Source of the DNA: a virus
Taxonomy: Duplodnaviria; Heunggongvirae; Uroviricota; Caudoviricetes
Direction: 5' to 3' (one strand)
Virus record (IMG/VR): IMGVR_UViG_2728369592_000010
Coordinates: 1-38,452 of that record
Length of the DNA: 38,452 bases
Numbering within the stretch: the stretch's first letter is position 1; every line of letters begins with the position of its first letter. A program made the translations under genes and the position numbers. Below, one piece after another: positions 2,698 to 34,273 of this stretch. The notes under the pieces were generated by a model. The model saw only the letters and a program-made list of their open reading frames with translations, was not told the DNA's origin and did not search any database.

Positions 2698-3178
2698 CGT
2701 CTTTTCTCCCCGGAATTAACTCGCGTGGATTATCGGAACGGTGATAAAGCCATATACCAATTCGCACAGCGACAATTGACGACACAAATGCGCCAGCAGA
2801 GAAGACGATCCCTTTCTCGAAAGAGTCCTGCGTGATGGTAGGGATCAGGCCGGCTACACCGATAAGGATGGATGCTGTAGGTTTGTAAAAGAGAAGGCCG
2901 CAGAGAAAGCTAAGCATCGACAAGAGTACGCGACGACGAATGGGATACTCTACTGCAGAGGTAACAAAAATAACCGCTCCAGCCAAAGACCCCAAAGCAA
3001 CCTCAGGAGGTGCTCCTGCTATAACCGCCACCAGAGAACTCATGCTAAGCCACTGATTTAAAGACTCACTGGTTATCTGAACTGACATAAAAACCACCGT
3101 TAAATGTGCATATGCCCCACCTAATTTAAGGGGTTCATCATACACAATAAACCACATGTGGTTAAACAGGTAATTCAT
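2684..3178 (-). CDS. Multi-TM membrane protein, putative holin (alternative internal start at Met31 with GGTGG SD)
   Basis: 164 aa with about 4 hydrophobic helices; first gene after the tailspike; no SD before the first ATG but GGTGG precedes an in-frame ATG 90 nt downstream; a seroconversion/flippase-like role cannot be excluded. Confidence 0.5.
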   Translation of the reverse strand: MNYLFNHMWFIVYDEPLKLGGAYAHLTVVFMSVQITSESLNQWLSMSSLVAVIAGAPPEVALGSLAGAVIFVTSAVEYPIRRRVLLSMLSFLCGLLFYKPTASILIGVAGLIPTITQDSFEKGIVFSAGAFVSSIVAVRIGIWLYHRSDNPRELIPGRKDDGNA

Positions 3179-3291
3179 TGTGATACTAATGTTAAACTCA
3201 TTACTGCCGAAAAAGTGTCACTGATTAAAACACGGTAGAGAAATTATTAACGAGTAATTTAGGCATAATTACAATATTTAAGTTATTAATT

Positions 3292-3306
3292 CACTGATTT
3301 AATCAG
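3292..3306. promoter_or_regulatory. Perfect palindrome ACTGAT-TTA-ATCAGT upstream of the lysis cassette, with a related half-site CACTGATTAAAA at 3218-3229
   Basis: Read directly; lies in the 190-bp gap between tailspike stop and first lysis gene. Confidence 0.35.
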
Positions 3307-3326
3307 TAAAAGATAGCTATAACATA

Positions 3327-3345
3327 CCACCTCCCAAGGAGGTGG
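3327..3345 (-). terminator. GC-rich hairpin CCACCTCC-caa-GGAGGTGG downstream of the tailspike gene (weak terminator/attenuator)
   Basis: Perfect 8-bp stem; no clean T-run on the minus strand, so efficiency is uncertain. Confidence 0.35.
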
Positions 3346-3371
3346 TTTAGGAATAACAATAAAATATGTAC

Positions 3372-5387
3372 TTACGCACTTCGTAATAAATGTTTAGACA
3401 TAGCAGCAATACAGAAACAAGATAAGTCAGCGTAATTTACACCGTACATATCCGATTCTTTATCATAAGTAACCAGAGAATAGTCTGTAGGGTTAAGATT
3501 ATATTTCTCCATAATCAGCATTACTTCTTGAGCCATACATCCGAAGTGATACTTATCAGATTCTGCATCTGTCCATTTAAACTTTATCATGCTAATGGCT
3601 AATTCTAGCCCTGCACTATACTCTGCCGTAGATATCTCATACAAATCTTTACATCTACCGTCAGATGTTTGTATTACACCATTAGTTGCAAAGACAGTTT
3701 GCCATCTACGACTAGATTGACCACAAGTTCTTTGATTATCTATCTGGGGGGCAACACTACCATCTATACGCAAATAGTTATCTTCCGCTTGTGCGCCTCC
3801 CATAACACCTTCTAAAAAAGGCAATCCTTTGTGATTATTTACAATGAATTTATTGGAGGTGTCTTCTGATATTCCGGTACCAGCATCTGGACCTATAAAA
3901 ATATTACCATTTCCAGTTGGTAATTTTCTTCCTGCTCTTGCTCCTATCATAACATTCAGGTCACCTGAGGATAGGGAATTGAGAGCATCAACACCAATTG
4001 CTGTATTAAAATTACCTGTGAGAGTCCCAGTGTATGGGTTCTCTGTTGATGATACTCCTCGCAATGCTCCATTACCTATAGCTGTGTTATGATCACCTTG
4101 CTTTAACTCCCTACCAGCTGCATTACCAATAAGGGTATTTCCATTACATTTATTATACCCAAGACGTACACCTTGAGGGTCTGTGTAGATGCCAGTACGC
4201 ATTCCTGCAGAGCGTCCTATTGCAACATTAGCTTCTCCAGAATGGAGTTGCTGCAAAGCTGACATACCAACTGCAACATTGAACCTACCATCCTTACACT
4301 CGTTTAGCGCATCCCTGCCAATACCAATCATGTTATTTCCAGTGGTGGCTTTCTTCAAAGCATTAATACCTATACTGATAATCTCTGTTCCAGAAAATGG
4401 CGACTTATCTGTAAGATCATCTTCTAGAGTATCTCCTGACAAACCACCCACACCAACCACGATTGTGTTAGTGCCGCTAGTTATGTTGCGACCAGAACTT
4501 GGTCCAAGCAAAACCAATTGATTACCTTTACCAGAGTCAGTGTAATTTTTTGCGGCATCATAACCTAAAATAAGGTTGCTATGAGACTGAGCTACATTGG
4601 TAAACGGAATTCGTTCCGCTCCTGTCTCTTTAATTATTTTTCCTGGGCCATAAAATCTTCCATTAATATCTTCCGGCAATAAATACGTGCCATCAGGAAC
4701 ATAAACACCTTGTGGCGAAGCAGATGCCGCGGCAATGAAAGCATCTGTATCATTTGTGACTCCATCACCTTTAGCGCCAAAGTCAAGAACACTGACAGTA
4801 TCCCGCATCTTATCCTGAAACGTTCTATATACCGCGCCTGAACCATACTGAATAAACCAACCAAAACCACCAACAACCCCGGCGATTGCAGCATCGACAT
4901 AATTACACATTGAGCGATTATTTACAGCGTCCTGCTCAAGTGATGGATCTGCAAGGTTAGAAATTCTGTTTTGCTTTGCATCGTAATATTTTGCAAGCAA
5001 AGATGGTTTCATCAATGCACGTCTGAACCACCCAAAACATTGCTGGATCAGCATCGTCAGGTAGTCAAAAGCATCTTCATGCACTTCGGGGAAAAATTTT
5101 CCCTGATTGCGAAGGTCTGTCTCCTGCACTACATCAAGCACACGATCTATCGTAATTCGCCATCCAGCAGCAAGCGGAGACGGAAGAACAACAGAACCGC
5201 CACTATAAGTGCCCGCCCCAGTTACCGTATAACCGGTATCCAGAACCAATTCTGTTACGTTCCCGTTCAGGTCAGACACCTGAACAACCAGGTCGGATTT
5301 TTTGAAAATACGGAAGGTATACGGAAATGATGTCGTAACGCCGTTACCTGTGTATTCGTTGTGGTCAACTTCGGTTGAGACCGTCAT
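3372..5387 (-). CDS. Tailspike / tail fibre with conserved N-terminal particle-binding domain and repeat-rich receptor-binding body
   Basis: N-terminus MTVSTEVDHNEYTGNGVTTSFPYTFRIFKK matches my memory of the epsilon15/phiV10 tailspike head-binding domain; body has repeated N-x-A-I-G-x-x-A motifs; C-terminal about 100 aa may be an intramolecular chaperone; 3' half is AT-rich. Confidence 0.85.
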   Translation of the reverse strand: MTVSTEVDHNEYTGNGVTTSFPYTFRIFKKSDLVVQVSDLNGNVTELVLDTGYTVTGAGTYSGGSVVLPSPLAAGWRITIDRVLDVVQETDLRNQGKFFPEVHEDAFDYLTMLIQQCFGWFRRALMKPSLLAKYYDAKQNRISNLADPSLEQDAVNNRSMCNYVDAAIAGVVGGFGWFIQYGSGAVYRTFQDKMRDTVSVLDFGAKGDGVTNDTDAFIAAASASPQGVYVPDGTYLLPEDINGRFYGPGKIIKETGAERIPFTNVAQSHSNLILGYDAAKNYTDSGKGNQLVLLGPSSGRNITSGTNTIVVGVGGLSGDTLEDDLTDKSPFSGTEIISIGINALKKATTGNNMIGIGRDALNECKDGRFNVAVGMSALQQLHSGEANVAIGRSAGMRTGIYTDPQGVRLGYNKCNGNTLIGNAAGRELKQGDHNTAIGNGALRGVSSTENPYTGTLTGNFNTAIGVDALNSLSSGDLNVMIGARAGRKLPTGNGNIFIGPDAGTGISEDTSNKFIVNNHKGLPFLEGVMGGAQAEDNYLRIDGSVAPQIDNQRTCGQSSRRWQTVFATNGVIQTSDGRCKDLYEISTAEYSAGLELAISMIKFKWTDAESDKYHFGCMAQEVMLIMEKYNLNPTDYSLVTYDKESDMYGVNYADLSCFCIAAMSKHLLRSA

Positions 5388-5490
5388 GTTAAATCTCCAG
5401 ATAGTCGCAGCACCCGTTGCGCCGCATATCTGGTTATTCTATTACCTGAAAAACCATATATGGATAGAAAGGCTGTAAATACGAATAGAT

Positions 5491-5507
5491 ATTACCTTTC
5501 AGGTAAT
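5491..5507. promoter_or_regulatory. Operator-like palindrome ATTACCTTTCAGGTAAT (TTACC-N5-GGTAA family)
   Basis: Perfect inverted repeat; identical core to the site at 22435-22449. Confidence 0.6.
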
Positions 5508-5543
5508 TTGCAAAACGTGCTGGATAGCAAACAAATTATTTGC

Positions 5544-5563
5544 TACTGTATAAATATACAGTT
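5544..5563. promoter_or_regulatory. LexA (SOS) box TACTGTATAAATATACAGTT
   Basis: CTGT-N8-ACAG with AT-rich spacer, 18/20 match to the E. coli consensus TACTGTATATATATACAGTA; 5-20 bp upstream of the start of the plus-strand small gene. Confidence 0.75.
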
Positions 5564-5568
5564 ATTGC

Positions 5569-5841
5569 ATGGAGAAGATTAAGATGCAGCAGTATCACTA
5601 TCCACTGGAAGACGGATTTACCGAAAGGATTCACACGCCGGGAGGCGTCAGGTCACTGGTGGAGGGATCGCACTTGATGAAATTACTCCGGGATCTCGAT
5701 AAGGATGGATTTAATGTCGATGGCCCACTTGCCGAACTGACTGCACTGATTAACTACGTCACCAGCTCACAGATGTCTATGCAGGATCTGCAAACACATC
5801 TCGACTATTGTGCCGAACAATTACGAAAACAAACCCGGTAA
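5569..5841 (+). CDS. Small SOS-regulated protein, candidate antirepressor (likely start at ATG 5584 after GGAGAAG)
   Basis: Opposite strand to flanking virion genes, own LexA-box promoter and downstream hairpin; 85-90 aa soluble protein with no family I can assign. Confidence 0.6.
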   Translation: MEKIKMQQYHYPLEDGFTERIHTPGGVRSLVEGSHLMKLLRDLDKDGFNVDGPLAELTALINYVTSSQMSMQDLQTHLDYCAEQLRKQTR

Positions 5842-5848
5842 ATTTAAA

Positions 5849-5877
5849 GGCCGCAAGAGCGGCCTGTGACATGTCAC
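5849..5877. terminator. Bidirectional terminator region: hairpin GGCCGC-aaga-GCGGCC followed by palindrome GTGACATGTCAC and a T-run
   Basis: Read directly; sits between the convergent plus-strand small gene and the minus-strand 98-aa gene. Confidence 0.5.
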
Positions 5878-6170
5878 GCTCTTTTTCTGAATGATAGCCA
5901 TTCGAAAAATGATGACATTCCACCGCAGACAATAGCAAAGATGATCCCACCAAAGAAGAGAAGGCCAGCCTGCCACCACTCCCACCGCCATACATCCACA
6001 GCGCCAACCATACCAACAATCGCTCCAACAAATGGAATATAGCTCACGATGAAAGCAATGGGGGCTGCAATTATCCAGTGCAATCCCCACCATGATTCAA
6101 GCCCAGCCATAATTGCTGCCAACTGAAAAAGACCAACGACGATATAAACAATGAATCCTATAGCTTGCAT
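5874..6170 (-). CDS. Small integral membrane protein (about 3 TM helices)
   Basis: 98-aa hydrophobic ORF with SD AGGTGA; sits within the late operon between internal virion proteins and tailspike. Confidence 0.6.
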   Translation of the reverse strand: MQAIGFIVYIVVGLFQLAAIMAGLESWWGLHWIIAAPIAFIVSYIPFVGAIVGMVGAVDVWRWEWWQAGLLFFGGIIFAIVCGGMSSFFEWLSFRKRA

Positions 6171-6365: not shown

Positions 6366-8840
6366 TTATTGCGGAGTGACATCCTGAGGTCGCCACCAGT
6401 ATGTCTGGTTAAACTCTTTCTTCGAACGTTGCTCCATTTTACGCAAATAGCCTGGTGAAAAATACTCCTGCATCTGGTTAAAGATCATATGATCGAGAGC
6501 CGCCTTTAAGTACCAGAGATTCGCACCTGGCATCAAACCTTTCCCCAGCTTCACCAGATCACCACCAGTCTGCTCACTCTTCCCTTCCACAGCATTTAAC
6601 GGTATGCCCTGAGCAATCTTCACTACGTCATCAACCAGACCAGCTACCGGGCCAAGCATCGACGCCAGCGCGCCGCTTCCGTACCTAGTGTGATCTGACA
6701 ATAAAAAGTCACCGTAAAGGCCAAGACCACCACCTTTCAGTAGAGCACCAAGCCAAAATTTAGCAGCATCTTCTCCTGTCATCTCGCGAGGATTACGACC
6801 AGACGCAAGGTCGTTAAGTTGCTGCGACAAAGCGCCAAGAATGGTCGTACTGGCAATAAACGTCGCAATATATGCCGCACGCCCACCAGCAGACGGCATA
6901 CCCATAGCGCGTGACCAGTGACGCATAACCACCGAGATAGGGAACGATTTAAACAGGAAAACACTTCTCGTTAATTCACCTTTCCATGTTCCACGCTGAA
7001 TACCAGAACCGGTTATCAGTTGCTCACGTGCTCCTGGTGTAATAACAGCCATATCAACTTCTTCAGTTACGGCACCGAGCAGTTTACGCATTGCCTCAAA
7101 TTTCACGCGTTCAGGCTCACCAAGATGTTTAACTGCTGAATCAGGGATACGCATAATGCTTTCCGGTGTCAGCATCGTATTATTGCCGTTCCCCCAGTCC
7201 TCCTGTTGCGCCAGCTTCCATACGCTCCAGTCTGTGTCAGTAATCCCTTTGCTTTTCAGGATACGAAAATCAGAGTCATCGAGGCGACGAAGGTCTGATG
7301 TCCGTGACACTACTTCTCCCAGGCTTCCCATCATGGTTACGCCATAGGCGCGCTTGTGCGCATCTGACCATGCTGTAAGCCCACTGGCACGCATTACCGC
7401 CGTTGCAGCCCAACGAGACACAGACGGCCCCATATTATCCATCGCCCAGCGGTTAACGCTGCCAAGTAGAGATTCCATCGCCAGACCAGCGCGGCGCGCC
7501 CGCGCAAGTTCTGTACGGTTCGTTGGGTCCATAGCTTCAAGCTGGTTGCGGAATAACTGGTTCATTGGAAGGTTGGTAACCTTCGCAGACAGATACATGG
7601 TTCCAAGATCAGAGAACGATGACAGCAACGCGGATCCGAGTCTGCTGGCAACCAGCCAGTTGCGGATATTGTCAGACCATCGCGCGATGTGCGGATTCGC
7701 TACAGGCTGTGTCTTTCCGGAAATAAAGTTGTACAGATTCTCTGTGTTGTTCGCCAGCCGCTCGACTTTACCGGTTTTACTCGGGTTAGCTGTTGCCGTT
7801 TCTGCCTTCACCTGATCAAGAAGAGAGCGGAAAACATGATCGGGGTTTGGACCATATGTTTCCACCAGTGCAATATCTTTACTGATACCTTCCAGGTGAC
7901 CGACCATGATTTCCCATAGAGAGCGATCGCCATAAAGTTGCTGATATTGCAGATAGGAATCTGCATCTTTGAAATGTATCTGTCGTGATGCATTACCACG
8001 GTTAGCACGTGCGCCGGAAATTCGCATTCCGGTATCAGTAAGCTTATTCAGCCCACCAGTAGCGATCGTGTTATAAGCCTCTCCAAGAAATGCAGACAAC
8101 TCGGCATCGTTCATCAGTTGTCCATCGGCTCGGGTATAATATTTGCGATCCAGCTTACCTATAACATCGCTAACCCATTTATCTTTTGATACCGCCCCAA
8201 CCTTTTCCATAGAATGATGTTGAGGGATCCCCCAGTTTTCGAGATAGCCAATGTCCCCACCAGCATCATTAAACCGGCGGCGCAGTAGCTCTGTCACTTC
8301 TCTCCACGCCTTAGCACCTTTTCTTGCTTTAGCATTGCCAGTATTTTGCCCCCGCATTTCATATACCAGGTCACGTACGCCCGCTTCATCTTCAAACAGA
8401 CCAAAAAAGCGAGGATCAACTGCTTCGAATGCCTCCTGTAATTGACTCAATGCATAATCACGGGTGGCTTTTGTTCTGGATTCAACAGAGAGGAAATTCG
8501 ATTTACCGTCTGCATTAAAAGCAATAGTACGGTTAAGAGCGCCAAGTTTCCCATCAGCCCCTTGATAGCTATTGATAAATTTATCCAATCTCTGACGTGC
8601 GGCTATAGTGAGGGCCACACGACGTTTCTTTAATGCCGCTTCTCGCTGTAATTCTTCAGATGCCAATTGTGCTGCACGATACAGCCGCTCTGATTCGGAA
8701 AGTTGTCGCCACGACATCGGGTCATCACGAGCAATGGAGCGCATATTTCGATAAATGCGGTCTTCAATGTTCTGTATTTCTCGCGCCGTTAACGTGCGCT
8801 GCGCCGCCTGCTGGACCGCTTGTATACATTCCTGTCTCAT
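6366..8840 (-). CDS. Large internal virion / DNA-ejection protein (T7 gp16-position analogue)
   Basis: 824-aa ORF with SD, in a run of three very large genes after the tail tube genes; assignment by size and position. Confidence 0.8.
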   Translation of the reverse strand: MRQECIQAVQQAAQRTLTAREIQNIEDRIYRNMRSIARDDPMSWRQLSESERLYRAAQLASEELQREAALKKRRVALTIAARQRLDKFINSYQGADGKLGALNRTIAFNADGKSNFLSVESRTKATRDYALSQLQEAFEAVDPRFFGLFEDEAGVRDLVYEMRGQNTGNAKARKGAKAWREVTELLRRRFNDAGGDIGYLENWGIPQHHSMEKVGAVSKDKWVSDVIGKLDRKYYTRADGQLMNDAELSAFLGEAYNTIATGGLNKLTDTGMRISGARANRGNASRQIHFKDADSYLQYQQLYGDRSLWEIMVGHLEGISKDIALVETYGPNPDHVFRSLLDQVKAETATANPSKTGKVERLANNTENLYNFISGKTQPVANPHIARWSDNIRNWLVASRLGSALLSSFSDLGTMYLSAKVTNLPMNQLFRNQLEAMDPTNRTELARARRAGLAMESLLGSVNRWAMDNMGPSVSRWAATAVMRASGLTAWSDAHKRAYGVTMMGSLGEVVSRTSDLRRLDDSDFRILKSKGITDTDWSVWKLAQQEDWGNGNNTMLTPESIMRIPDSAVKHLGEPERVKFEAMRKLLGAVTEEVDMAVITPGAREQLITGSGIQRGTWKGELTRSVFLFKSFPISVVMRHWSRAMGMPSAGGRAAYIATFIASTTILGALSQQLNDLASGRNPREMTGEDAAKFWLGALLKGGGLGLYGDFLLSDHTRYGSGALASMLGPVAGLVDDVVKIAQGIPLNAVEGKSEQTGGDLVKLGKGLMPGANLWYLKAALDHMIFNQMQEYFSPGYLRKMEQRSKKEFNQTYWWRPQDVTPQ

Positions 8841-18400: not shown

Positions 18401-18451
18401 CTTCTTTCTCCATTAGTGGGTCTGTTACGACCCACAGGTTAATAACAGGCG

Positions 18452-22771: not shown

Positions 22772-22848
22772 GTGGCATTAGCTCAGTTGGACAGAGCAAC
22801 CGCCTTCTAAGCGGTTGGTCGCAGGTTCGAATCCTGCATGCCACGCCA
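22772..22848 (+). tRNA. tRNA-Arg (anticodon UCU, reads AGA), phage-encoded, with encoded CCA
   Basis: Manually folded cloverleaf: acceptor GTGGCAT/ATGCCAC, D-stem GCTC/GAGC, anticodon stem ACCGC/GCGGT with loop CTTCTAA (TCT at 22806-22808), T-arm GCAGG-TTCGAAT-CCTGC, discriminator G, CCA; similar to but distinct from host argU as I recall it. Confidence 0.85.
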
Positions 22849-22935: not shown

Positions 22936-23011
22936 AGCAGGACGCCATTGCGATGACTTCATGCTGTAAACCAGTACAGCCACGGAAGGCGGAACTCATT
23001 GCTTCCAGTTC

Positions 23012-23041: not shown

Positions 23042-23920
23042 ATGACCACAAATTACCTTAAAGGTATAATCATGAAAAACTTTAAGGTAATTAGTATGTT
23101 CGAATCGTTCAAAGAGCTGTTTTTATCTACTGCCAATACTGCCGTGCATCGAGCTAAAAACCCTGTGCTTGGTGCTTTTGTTATGTCCTGGTGCGCCTTC
23201 AACTGGAAATCACTTCTTTATCTATTTTTTAGCAAATCAAATATAATAGATAAAATTTCATACATCTCAGATAACAGCACATGGAAAACTGTTATGTTTT
23301 ATCCATGCTTATCTGTAATTACTATCTGCTGCCTATTACCATGGGTAAACAATATCATTAACGTATGGCAAGCAAAGCCTCTTGATAATAATGACTCAAT
23401 CGAAAATCACCGGAAGGCAAGAAAAATACAACGTGAAACACGGCTACAGAGATTGCTGGCTAAAAAAGACATTACTTACGAAAAAGTAAAAACAGGCGCT
23501 GAAAAAAACATTCAAGACATGAAAGAGGAAATAATTCTTTCAAAAGACAGAATGGGACAACTCACATCTGAATTGAAAGAGAGGGAGACAGAACTGCGCG
23601 CAGAACAAGCTCGTATTTTAGAATTATCTAAGGTTATTGATGAAACAACATCTAAACTAGAAAATCTAGAAAAAGCTCACAAAAATTTAAAAAACGAATA
23701 TGAGTCCTATAAGAAAAACATTCCTTTGGCAACAAATAATACAATTGCTAATGGGCTTGTAGGTCTAAAATCATTACAAGACCTTAATGAGTCCGTAAAG
23801 AAACTTGGCGTTACTGGAATTAACAATCCAGAAATCAATACATTATTGAATAATCCTCTAGTAAATATAAATGGTGGTTTAAATTCCACCTATCAAAGAA
23901 AATTAAAAACACAAAAGTAA
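23042..23920 (+). CDS. AT-rich moron: membrane-anchored coiled-coil protein of unknown function (candidate exclusion/abortive-infection effector); probable start at ATG 23096
   Basis: Clearly AT-rich relative to flanks (by eye about 35% vs about 50% GC); opposite strand to terminase and portal; own -10 TATAAT at 23065-23070 overlapped by near-operator TTACCTTAAAGGTAT (23053-23067); two N-terminal TM helices then about 120-aa coiled coil; uses AGA/AGG Arg codons. Confidence 0.75.
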   Translation: MTTNYLKGIIMKNFKVISMFESFKELFLSTANTAVHRAKNPVLGAFVMSWCAFNWKSLLYLFFSKSNIIDKISYISDNSTWKTVMFYPCLSVITICCLLPWVNNIINVWQAKPLDNNDSIENHRKARKIQRETRLQRLLAKKDITYEKVKTGAEKNIQDMKEEIILSKDRMGQLTSELKERETELRAEQARILELSKVIDETTSKLENLEKAHKNLKNEYESYKKNIPLATNNTIANGLVGLKSLQDLNESVKKLGVTGINNPEINTLLNNPLVNINGGLNSTYQRKLKTQK

Positions 23921-29593: not shown

Positions 29594-29596
29594 GAT

Positions 29597-31674: not shown

Positions 31675-31905
31675 TCATGAGTAGAAGAAGTATGCCAGTT
31701 CTGCTTTTGAGCGCAACCATTGTCTTGATTTACAGGCTTTAAAAAGCCCATTCATCAATACTTTACCTGGCATTTTGCGCTTACCTGTTAAGTGAGTCTG
31801 GATATAGTGACTCGTCGTTCCGGCTTCCTGTGCGAAGGCTTCACGCTCATCCGGAGTAAGTGCAAGCCAGTGCTTTTTGAAATCGAAATGTCCGTTATCG
31901 CTCAT
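31675..31905 (-). CDS. Cro-like small HTH regulator, first gene of the lytic-direction operon
   Basis: 76 aa with HTH-like segment EREAFAQEAGTTSHYIQTHLTGKR; divergent from the repressor gene across an operator cluster. Confidence 0.6.
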   Translation of the reverse strand: MSDNGHFDFKKHWLALTPDEREAFAQEAGTTSHYIQTHLTGKRKMPGKVLMNGLFKACKSRQWLRSKAELAYFFYS

Positions 31906-32059: not shown

Positions 32060-32644
32060 ATGAAAAGTATCCAGGACGTCCGCAGGCAAAATCTCAACGA
32101 CTTGATCGACCGTGAATTCAATGGTGTTCAGACGCGGATGGCAGAAAAACTTGGAACTCAGGCAAATCTGGTAAACCGCTGGGCTCTTGGCAAGAAGGTT
32201 ATCGGCGACCAGGTTGCGCGAAAAATTGAAGCTGCCGCCAATAAACCCCGTAACTGGCTTGATATCGATCGCTCGCTTTCTCAGGAAGGTTTTCAGCCTG
32301 TCGGCCCAAGCGACATTGGTCAGCTAGCGGCTCACAACCTGGAACGCTGGATGAGCGAAAGCCGCGACCTTTCAACACAGGGAAAACTTCACCGCGCATC
32401 CGGCGTCGCCCAGGTGACAATCAGCCGCCTGTTAAACAATGAGGTCAGCGTTTCCATTTCCACCCTGGAGAATGTTGCATCCGCATTCGGGCGTCACGGA
32501 TATGAACTACTGATTCACCCGCACGACCCTGCGACTATCAACTATGACCGCTCACGCTACGCATTGTTACCCGAAACCGAGAAAGCAAAGATCGAAAGTT
32601 ACATTGAATTTGTCATCAACCAGAACGAAAAAAGCAAACAATAA
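32060..32644 (+). CDS. Immunity repressor candidate with two tandem XRE-type HTH domains and no recognisable S24 autocleavage domain
   Basis: HTH-like segments at about residues 20-65 and 110-150; no Ala-Gly cleavage site or Ser/Lys peptidase motifs seen; divergent from the Cro-like gene. Confidence 0.7.
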   Translation: MKSIQDVRRQNLNDLIDREFNGVQTRMAEKLGTQANLVNRWALGKKVIGDQVARKIEAAANKPRNWLDIDRSLSQEGFQPVGPSDIGQLAAHNLERWMSESRDLSTQGKLHRASGVAQVTISRLLNNEVSVSISTLENVASAFGRHGYELLIHPHDPATINYDRSRYALLPETEKAKIESYIEFVINQNEKSKQ

Positions 32645-33455: not shown

Positions 33456-34273
33456 ATACTGGCATCTATTTCGACATCAGCAATGAGGACTACCACGCCG
33501 GTGACGGCGTGAGTAAGTCGCAACTGGACATGGTTGCCAAGAATCCGGCGCTTCTTAAATGGGTTCAGGCAGCACCAGAAGACGAAGAGAAAAAGTCTGC
33601 ACTAGATATGGGAACTGCATTGCACTGTCTGCTTCTTGAACCTGGAGAATTCGACAAACGCTTCATTGTTTCACCAAAGTTCGATCGTCGGACGAAACAA
33701 GGTAAAGCTGACGAAGAAGCATTTCTTCGTGATGTAGCGGATATGGGGATTGCGGTACTTGATGCCGAGCAGTGGCGGAAACTGGAGCTGATGCGTGATA
33801 GCGCAATGGCTCACCCGGCGGCACGCTGGATGCTGGAAGCACCTGGTTACTGCGAAGCATCAATGTACTGGAACGATGAAGAGACTGGTGAGTTGTGCCG
33901 CATTCGTCCAGACAAATGGCTGAACGAGCACAACGTGATCGTCGACGTGAAAAAGGTTGCAGATATGGACCGTTTTGCACGCCACATCGAGGAATTCCGC
34001 TACCACGTGCAGGACGCAATGTACCGCGAAGGCGCAATGAGGGTTACTGGTCAGCCGCATGGTTTTTTCTTTCTTGCCGTGAGCGAAAGCATTGATTGTG
34101 GTCGGTATCCGGTACGCGTGTTCGAGCTGGATGCGCCGGATGTCGATGCCGGGCACGCTCTGTTCCGCCGGGATCTGAATACCTATCACGAATGCCGCAT
34201 CAGCGATGAATGGGGCGGCGTGGAAATTATTAAACGCCCTGAGTGGGCACGCAAACAGGATATGTACGTATGA
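33452..34273 (+). CDS. RecE-like PD-(D/E)xK exonuclease (DUF3799-type)
   Basis: N-terminus GIYFDISNEDYHAGDGVSKSQL and D...IVDVKKV motif typical of the exonuclease VIII C-terminal domain family; immediately upstream of recT. Confidence 0.7.
   Translation: MNTGIYFDISNEDYHAGDGVSKSQLDMVAKNPALLKWVQAAPEDEEKKSALDMGTALHCLLLEPGEFDKRFIVSPKFDRRTKQGKADEEAFLRDVADMGIAVLDAEQWRKLELMRDSAMAHPAARWMLEAPGYCEASMYWNDEETGELCRIRPDKWLNEHNVIVDVKKVADMDRFARHIEEFRYHVQDAMYREGAMRVTGQPHGFFFLAVSESIDCGRYPVRVFELDAPDVDAGHALFRRDLNTYHECRISDEWGGVEIIKRPEWARKQDMYV

Follow-up and report, generated by a model that had tools for sequence, protein, structure and literature searches.

The closest described system to the locus studied here is the Ant/Rep switch of the Salmonella phage SPC32H (PDB 5D50, 5D4Z), which was reportedly settled by genetics, biochemistry and a Rep-Ant crystal structure in the work of Kim & Ryu in 2013 (J Virol 87:11775) and of Kim et al. 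in 2016 (PNAS 113:E2480). SPC32N, which we take to be the constitutively Ant-producing sibling of SPC32H, is said to differ from it by two nucleotides genome-wide (Kim & Ryu 2013, J Virol), and in the same study a change in the LexA site reportedly made Ant constitutive, which led to the lytic growth of SPC32N. The SPC32H authors are also said to have found their Ant structurally distinct from Tum, for which Shearwin 1998 is reportedly the source in coliphage 186, and from the Gifsy/Fels-2 antirepressors. In 186 (Tum), Gifsy-1/-3 and Fels-2, LexA represses a small antirepressor gene, and the SOS response results in a non-cleavable repressor being inactivated without proteolysis (PMC7380047; Lemire et al. 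2011, PMC3121763). A review gives the same order of events, from LexA cleavage through the synthesis of Ant to the inhibition of the repressor (PMC7380047). Another temperate podovirus, P22, has an antirepressor gene (ant of immI) that adjoins its tailspike gene; however, P22 Ant is large and is controlled by Mnt and Arc rather than by LexA, and P22 ant mutants are still SOS-inducible (PMC7380047).

The stretch of viral DNA that was analysed, referred to below as the window, is 38,452 nucleotides long. Across its first 25 kb it aligned at approximately 97% identity with phages of the phiV10/TL-2011b/ZX5/phiv142-3 type, and 513 bp around the SOS box and the ant gene shared 96-99% DNA identity with the Escherichia phages phiV10, TL-2011b, vB_EcoP_ZX5, phiv142-3 and others. 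Judged by its sequence, the window is a phiV10/TL-2011b-like Uetakevirus, that is, an epsilon15-like temperate podovirus of E. coli. The system that it carries is, on the same kind of evidence, one that is already known: its Ant is an 88%-identical orthologue of SPC32H Ant, and the two phages belong to one genus. The likeness extends over the full length of the protein and to the position and orientation of the gene, to a homologous LexA box that is equally far from the start codon and is accompanied by the same -35, extended -10 and Shine-Dalgarno sequences, to a repressor-type palindrome at an equal upstream position and to a Rep that is homologous end to end and likewise lacks an S24 domain. 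The window differs from SPC32H in its host, which is E. coli, in its Rep, which belongs to another allele class (43% identity), in an upstream ATG that a 1-nt insertion has brought into frame and in the receptor-binding part of the tailspike, which is unrelated. The sequence-only reading had compared this locus with 186 Tum and the Gifsy-type phages; the Ant of the epsilon15-like podovirus SPC32H is the better comparator, while Tum and the Gifsy antirepressors are functional analogues only, differing in genomic position and phage type and showing no similarity to the window Ant as far as the Pfam scan alone can tell (DinI was absent and only DUF724 was returned). The same scan found no ANT or KilAC domain in the window Ant that would liken it to P22 Ant.

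The SOS box and the promoter of ant

A LexA (SOS) box, TACTGTATAAATATACAGTT, was read directly at 5544-5563. It is near-consensus, matching TACTGTATATATATACAGTA at 18 of its 20 positions and differing at two, and both tetranucleotides, CTGT and ACAG, are intact on either side of the A+T-rich spacer ATAAATAT. It was the sole site in the 38.4-kb window with no more than three mismatches from TACTGTATATATATACAGTA, and none of 100 shuffles gave one, which confirms the almost perfect SOS box that had been proposed from the sequence. The looser core CTGT-N8-ACAG was present three times in the window compared with 0.43 expected. The copies at 18422 and 22964 were rejected as SOS boxes because they have G+C-rich spacers, lie off gene starts and depart from the 20-mer consensus by more than three mismatches; the copy at 22964 has a tRNA gene on one side and a terminator-like hairpin on the other.

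The tailspike-ant intergenic regions of nine Uetakeviruses from E. coli, Salmonella, Enterobacter and Klebsiella were aligned, and four elements were found to be kept: the SOS box, a CTGGA(T/A)A block, a T.TG.TA.TGT block and GGAG. The CTGT and ACAG halves are kept in the six relatives from E. coli, Salmonella and Enterobacter, while the spacer of the box varies. The three Klebsiella phages have ATGT in place of CTGT as the left half, together with a 1-nt insertion (alignment columns 165-185). The mismatch affects a core position of LexA contact, so in these phages the repression of ant may be looser, or the site may have shifted. Over 461 nt across the region, SPC32H and SPC32N are identical except for a change of ACAG to AAAG in the right half of the homologous box; the box of the window carries the intact ACAG, as does that of SPC32H.

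A standard sigma-70 scan returned no promoter at ant because TACTGT scores only 3/6. A relaxed scan, which credits a TG extension, picked the pair that matches the conserved blocks as the one clear best candidate, consisting of a predicted -35 TGGATA (5521-5526, plus strand) and a predicted TG-extended -10 TGcTACTGT (5541-5549, plus strand) with a 17-bp spacer between TGGATA and TACTGT (5544-5549); this was the best-scoring -35/-10 pair in 5490-5583. The CTGGA(T/A)A block over the predicted -35 is invariant in all nine aligned phages, and the T.TG.TA.TGT columns over the predicted -10 are also invariant in the alignment. The predicted -10 overlaps the left half of the SOS box and the predicted transcription start of ant, at approximately 5556, falls within it, so LexA on 5544-5563 would cover both, which is classic repression by occlusion. 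We infer that LexA binds at 5544-5563 and that ant is SOS-inducible.

Downstream of the box, a Shine-Dalgarno sequence GGAG (5572-5575, plus strand), invariant in the nine phages, precedes by 8 nt the ATG at 5584, which is the conserved start of ant and the equivalent of the ATG at which SPC32H ant begins. The length of 85-90 aa that had been given for the product can therefore be narrowed to its lower end. The 90-aa reading frame from the ATG at 5569 was rejected as misleading, since this codon is in frame in this window only, as a result of a 1-nt insertion (AGATTAAG compared with AGA-TAAG in phiV10 and other relatives, 5569-5583); in the aligned relatives the equivalent ATG is either out of the ant frame (the six phages of E. 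coli, Salmonella and Enterobacter) or missing (the three of Klebsiella).

Ant, its presumed target and the operator-like palindrome

The ant gene (5584-5841 including the stop codon, plus strand) encodes an antirepressor of 85 aa. Residues 2-84 matched SPC32H Ant, which is chain E of PDB 5D50 ('Anti-repressor protein'), with 88% identity and an E value of 4e-47, the sole match in the PDB, and the gene is annotated as 'ant: anti-repressor protein' in both SPC32H (KC911856) and SPC32N. Ant also matched PHROG 450 (E 3e-48, covering 2-88 of 88) and, through the C-terminal 50 positions of that family, PHROG 1760 'anti-repressor' (E 4e-7). A tblastn search of the phage records with Ant matched 35 records, SPC32H and SPC32N among them, and 41 columns were invariant across seven homologues. 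Because of the matches to PHROG 450 and to 5D50 chain E, Ant has a family by sequence similarity, and a relative in it has been solved in complex with its repressor. The sequence-only reading, which could assign the protein to no family, was right as regards Pfam and NCBIfam and wrong as regards PHROG and the PDB: the Pfam scan (E<=1) gave only a sub-threshold, spurious DUF724 and no DinI, ANT, KilAC or Bro-N, and NCBIfam gave no match and has no model. Rfam had no match to the ant region at E<=1, and no second copy of Ant was found in the window. Within its own group, Ant is 98-100% identical to the Ant of phiV10, TL-2011b, ZX5 and phiv142-3, in every record of which the gene is a 'hypothetical protein'.

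The presumed target of Ant is the master repressor encoded by rep (32060-32644, plus strand, 194 aa). It is the one full-length homologue of SPC32H Rep in the window, aligning with it end to end at 43% identity, and it matched chain A of PDB 5D50 ('Repressor') with an E value of 3.5e-42. Pfam found only HTH domains in it and no Peptidase_S24, in agreement with the earlier remark that the repressor lacks a domain for autocleavage; nor did an S24 domain or alternative induction device turn up in a further ten small non-virion ORFs, which came mostly from the early region. The window Rep is 99-100% identical to the Rep of phiV10, TL-2011b, ZX5 and phiv142-3, including 99.5% to the ZX5 ORF21 repressor, whose overexpression resulted in no free phage or lytic growth and brought the transcripts of endolysin and holin down by over 99.9% (PMC9782041). 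SPC32H Rep is described as consisting of a DNA-binding domain at the N-terminus, a dimerisation domain in the middle and, at the C-terminus, a domain for tetramerisation and Ant binding, with F187 and F190 at the tetramer interface (PMC9986798). The corresponding positions in the window Rep are Y and F, and the identity between the two proteins is 49% in the C-terminal tail and 33% in the middle domain.

Compared with SPC32H, Rep is an outlier among the window proteins: its identity is 42-43%, whereas that of Ant is 87-88%, that of the Cro-like protein (31675-31905) is 78% and that of the adjacent virion protein (6366-8840) is 94%. Among six phages the Rep proteins form two classes, one from E. 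coli and Enterobacter and one from Salmonella and Klebsiella, which are 42-47% identical to each other, and rep has either been swapped or has diverged into these allele classes. The identity of Ant does not track this split and remains 84-87% across the classes. The NLVNRW stretch of Rep, taken to be its recognition helix, is invariant in both classes, which fits one shared operator. As for occurrence, Rep matched 37 phage records and Ant 35, and these are nearly the same set of Uetakeviruses. With an overall identity to SPC32H Rep of just 43%, falling to 33% in the middle domain, the window Rep is a divergent E. coli allele, and its binding by Ant is an extrapolation by analogy with SPC32H. 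This is the chief reservation about the proposed mechanism; it may be that Ant reads features of Rep that have been conserved.

The ant-tailspike intergenic region also contains a 17-bp palindrome, ATTACCTTTCAGGTAAT (ATTACC-N5-GGTAAT), at 5491-5507. It precedes the SOS box by 37 bp, its centre is at approximately -57 from the predicted ant start, and it is kept in all nine phages. Copies with no more than two mismatches number 14 in the window compared with 1.07 expected and 18 in SPC32H compared with 0.92 expected. Those in the window are found at 5491-5507, 22434, 25985, 26003, 29596, 29658, 31989, 32701 and 32763, in addition to weaker ones, and the copies with one mismatch at most cluster intergenically around rep and cro, past the end of rep, ahead of terS and where other operons start. 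The RefSeq record of epsilon15 annotates the equivalent sites as 'protein_bind: repressor; lysogeny'. The palindrome is probably the operator of Rep, common to both Rep classes, and Rep would be expected to bind to it. Pairs of copies are often 62 bp apart, as at 29596/29658 and 32701/32763 in the window and at 33603/33665 and 35971/36033 in SPC32H. Elsewhere in the window, an operator-like palindrome, ATTACCTTAAAGGTATAAT, at 23052-23075 overlaps a perfect TATAAT just 5' of a plus-strand ORF (23042/23073-23920), which has no Pfam match, is opposite to the virion genes and adjoins a tRNA-Arg gene (22772-22848).

Several of the E. coli relatives, phiV10 (phiV10p23) and ZX5 among them, have an extra Bro-N 'anti-repressor' gene downstream of ant, which is absent from the window. 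In ZX5 this gene is ORF4 (3077-3772 of locus L010), a 231-aa Bro-N protein whose C-terminal domain (150-223) is 42% identical to residues 2-75 of Ant (E 8e-16). Its overexpression lowered lysogeny, measured as prophage counts, approximately 1000-fold (PMC9782041). We did not accept the ZX5 study as a direct E. coli test of the small Ant because its 'ORF4 anti-repressor' is this 231-aa protein and the small Ant was left as 'hypothetical'. Nevertheless, the Rep of ZX5 is 99.5% identical to that of the window, so the effect of ORF4, with its Ant-like domain, indirectly supports the action of an Ant-type domain on the E. coli allele of Rep.

Neighbouring genes and the hairpin

The tailspike or tail fibre gene (3372-5387, minus strand, 671 aa) is divergent from ant, and on the other side of ant lies a membrane-protein gene (5874-6170, minus strand, 98 aa), beyond which are the genes for virion proteins of 824 aa and 600 aa, also on the minus strand. 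All of the virion genes near ant are thus on the minus strand and the ant ORF is on the plus strand, as the sequence-only reading had stated for a small gene beside the tailspike. This layout, with ant on the opposite strand between the tailspike and the internal-virion-protein genes, is that of SPC32H_018-021 and of epsilon15 gp17-gp20. The N-terminal 167 aa of the window tailspike share 68% identity with the SPC32H tailspike.

Two blocks upstream of the tailspike gene (5436-5466), ATTCTATTACC and AACC..ATATG.AT, are also kept in all nine phages. On the minus strand ATTCTATTACC reads GGTAATAGAAT, in which a -10-like TAGAAT adjoins an operator half-site, and the blocks may represent an activator-dependent tailspike promoter. 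An inspection by eye for a minus-strand tailspike promoter over the 5491-5507 palindrome revealed nothing convincing, only the conserved TAGAAT at 5441-5436 with a weak -35.

A G+C-rich hairpin follows ant at 5848-5865 (minus strand); its 7-bp stem has six G-C pairs and is followed on the minus strand by TTAAATTT. The folding energy was -17.2 kcal/mol, with a z-score of -3.7 on the minus strand and -1.8 on the plus strand, and the ant strand has no U-run directly after the stem. In the epsilon15 record the equivalent hairpin is a rho-independent terminator on the virion-gene strand. Because the U-tract is on the minus-strand transcript, the hairpin is chiefly a terminator for the virion operon that converges on ant, although it may also stop ant transcripts; the terminator that had been described as flanking ant is therefore real but belongs mainly to the other operon. 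Directly after the hairpin, a perfect 12-bp palindrome, GTGACATGTCAC, at 5866-5877 overlaps the stop codon of the 98-aa membrane-protein gene, and it is kept in SPC32H (approximately 3287-3298 of locus L001).

Mechanism, alternatives and meaning

The locus is very probably the module by which an epsilon15-like (Uetakevirus) prophage of E. coli is induced, with a LexA-controlled Ant inactivating a non-cleavable Rep. In the lysogen, host LexA bound to the box (5544-5563) would occlude both the -10 and the predicted start, leaving ant silent. Upon DNA damage, active RecA would promote the self-cleavage of LexA, the ant promoter would open and the 85-aa Ant would be made, which would then bind Rep (32060-32644), itself incapable of self-cleavage. 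If the SPC32H Rep-Ant crystal structure is a guide, an Ant tetramer would split the Rep tetramer into dimers that could no longer hold the operators, and the lytic promoters, freed of Rep, would open. The SOS-controlled antirepressor route that had been suggested from the sequence is thus supported by an Ant that is 88% identical to that of SPC32H, together with a full-length homologue of its repressor (5D50) without an S24 domain.

The likeliest alternative, although we consider it improbable, is that ant is SOS-induced but does not act on its own Rep, the E. coli allele having perhaps drifted too far for Ant to recognise, that it has some other role, directed at co-resident prophages with a Salmonella-type Rep or at a host target, and that the prophage is induced otherwise. 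Such a role would agree with the low identity of Rep to its SPC32H and epsilon15 counterparts (42-43%), compared with 84-87% for Ant, whose divergence is independent of the Rep class, and the crosstalk of trans-acting antirepressors has been documented for the Gifsy phages (PMC3121763). Against this, the sets of records with Ant and with Rep nearly coincide, the domain layout of Rep is complete, with the C-terminal tail for Ant binding and tetramerisation better conserved (49%), neither Rep nor the ten small non-virion ORFs offers an S24 domain or alternative induction device, and a protein with an Ant-like domain acts in ZX5, a phage that has the same Rep.

It is far less probable that the box is a chance palindrome, or that it regulates something else, for instance the divergent tailspike promoter or antisense late transcription, with ant being constitutive or late. 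The intergenic region is indeed common to the tailspike gene and contains other conserved blocks, but the shuffles gave no such site, the box is 157 bp from the tailspike start compared with 21 bp from the ant start and overlaps the conserved plus-strand -10, CTGT and ACAG are kept while the spacer varies, and the single-base change of SPC32N falls in the homologous box. It is scarcely credible that the ORF makes no protein and that a small RNA is encoded here instead; the small size of the ORF is all that speaks for this reading, which is refuted by the 88%-identical homologue that was crystallised as a protein (5D50), while the 41 amino-acid columns that are invariant among homologues with diverged DNA and the lack of an Rfam match at E<=1 point the same way.

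Beyond the induction of the prophage by its own Ant, the conservation of Ant (84-87%), Cro (78%), the operator palindrome and NLVNRW across the Rep classes suggests that one Ant type may inactivate both of them. We put forward only tentatively, as a rather doubtful extension, that this permits SOS cross-induction among Uetakevirus prophages and that the palindrome places the ant or the tailspike promoter under the joint control of Rep and LexA. If ant were controlled jointly in this way, there would be positive feedback once Ant had started to remove Rep. The divergence of Rep, set against a conserved Ant and operator, thus poses a modest but testable question about antirepressor specificity. 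The locus was found in 533 of 5426 complete E. coli genomes, approximately a tenth, including O157 and other STEC-associated prophages of the phiV10/TL-2011b type, and it was labelled as a 'hypothetical protein' in all 12 of the genome records listed. The practical value of the finding lies in annotation, as naming the gene ant would mark these prophages as SOS-inducible via an antirepressor.
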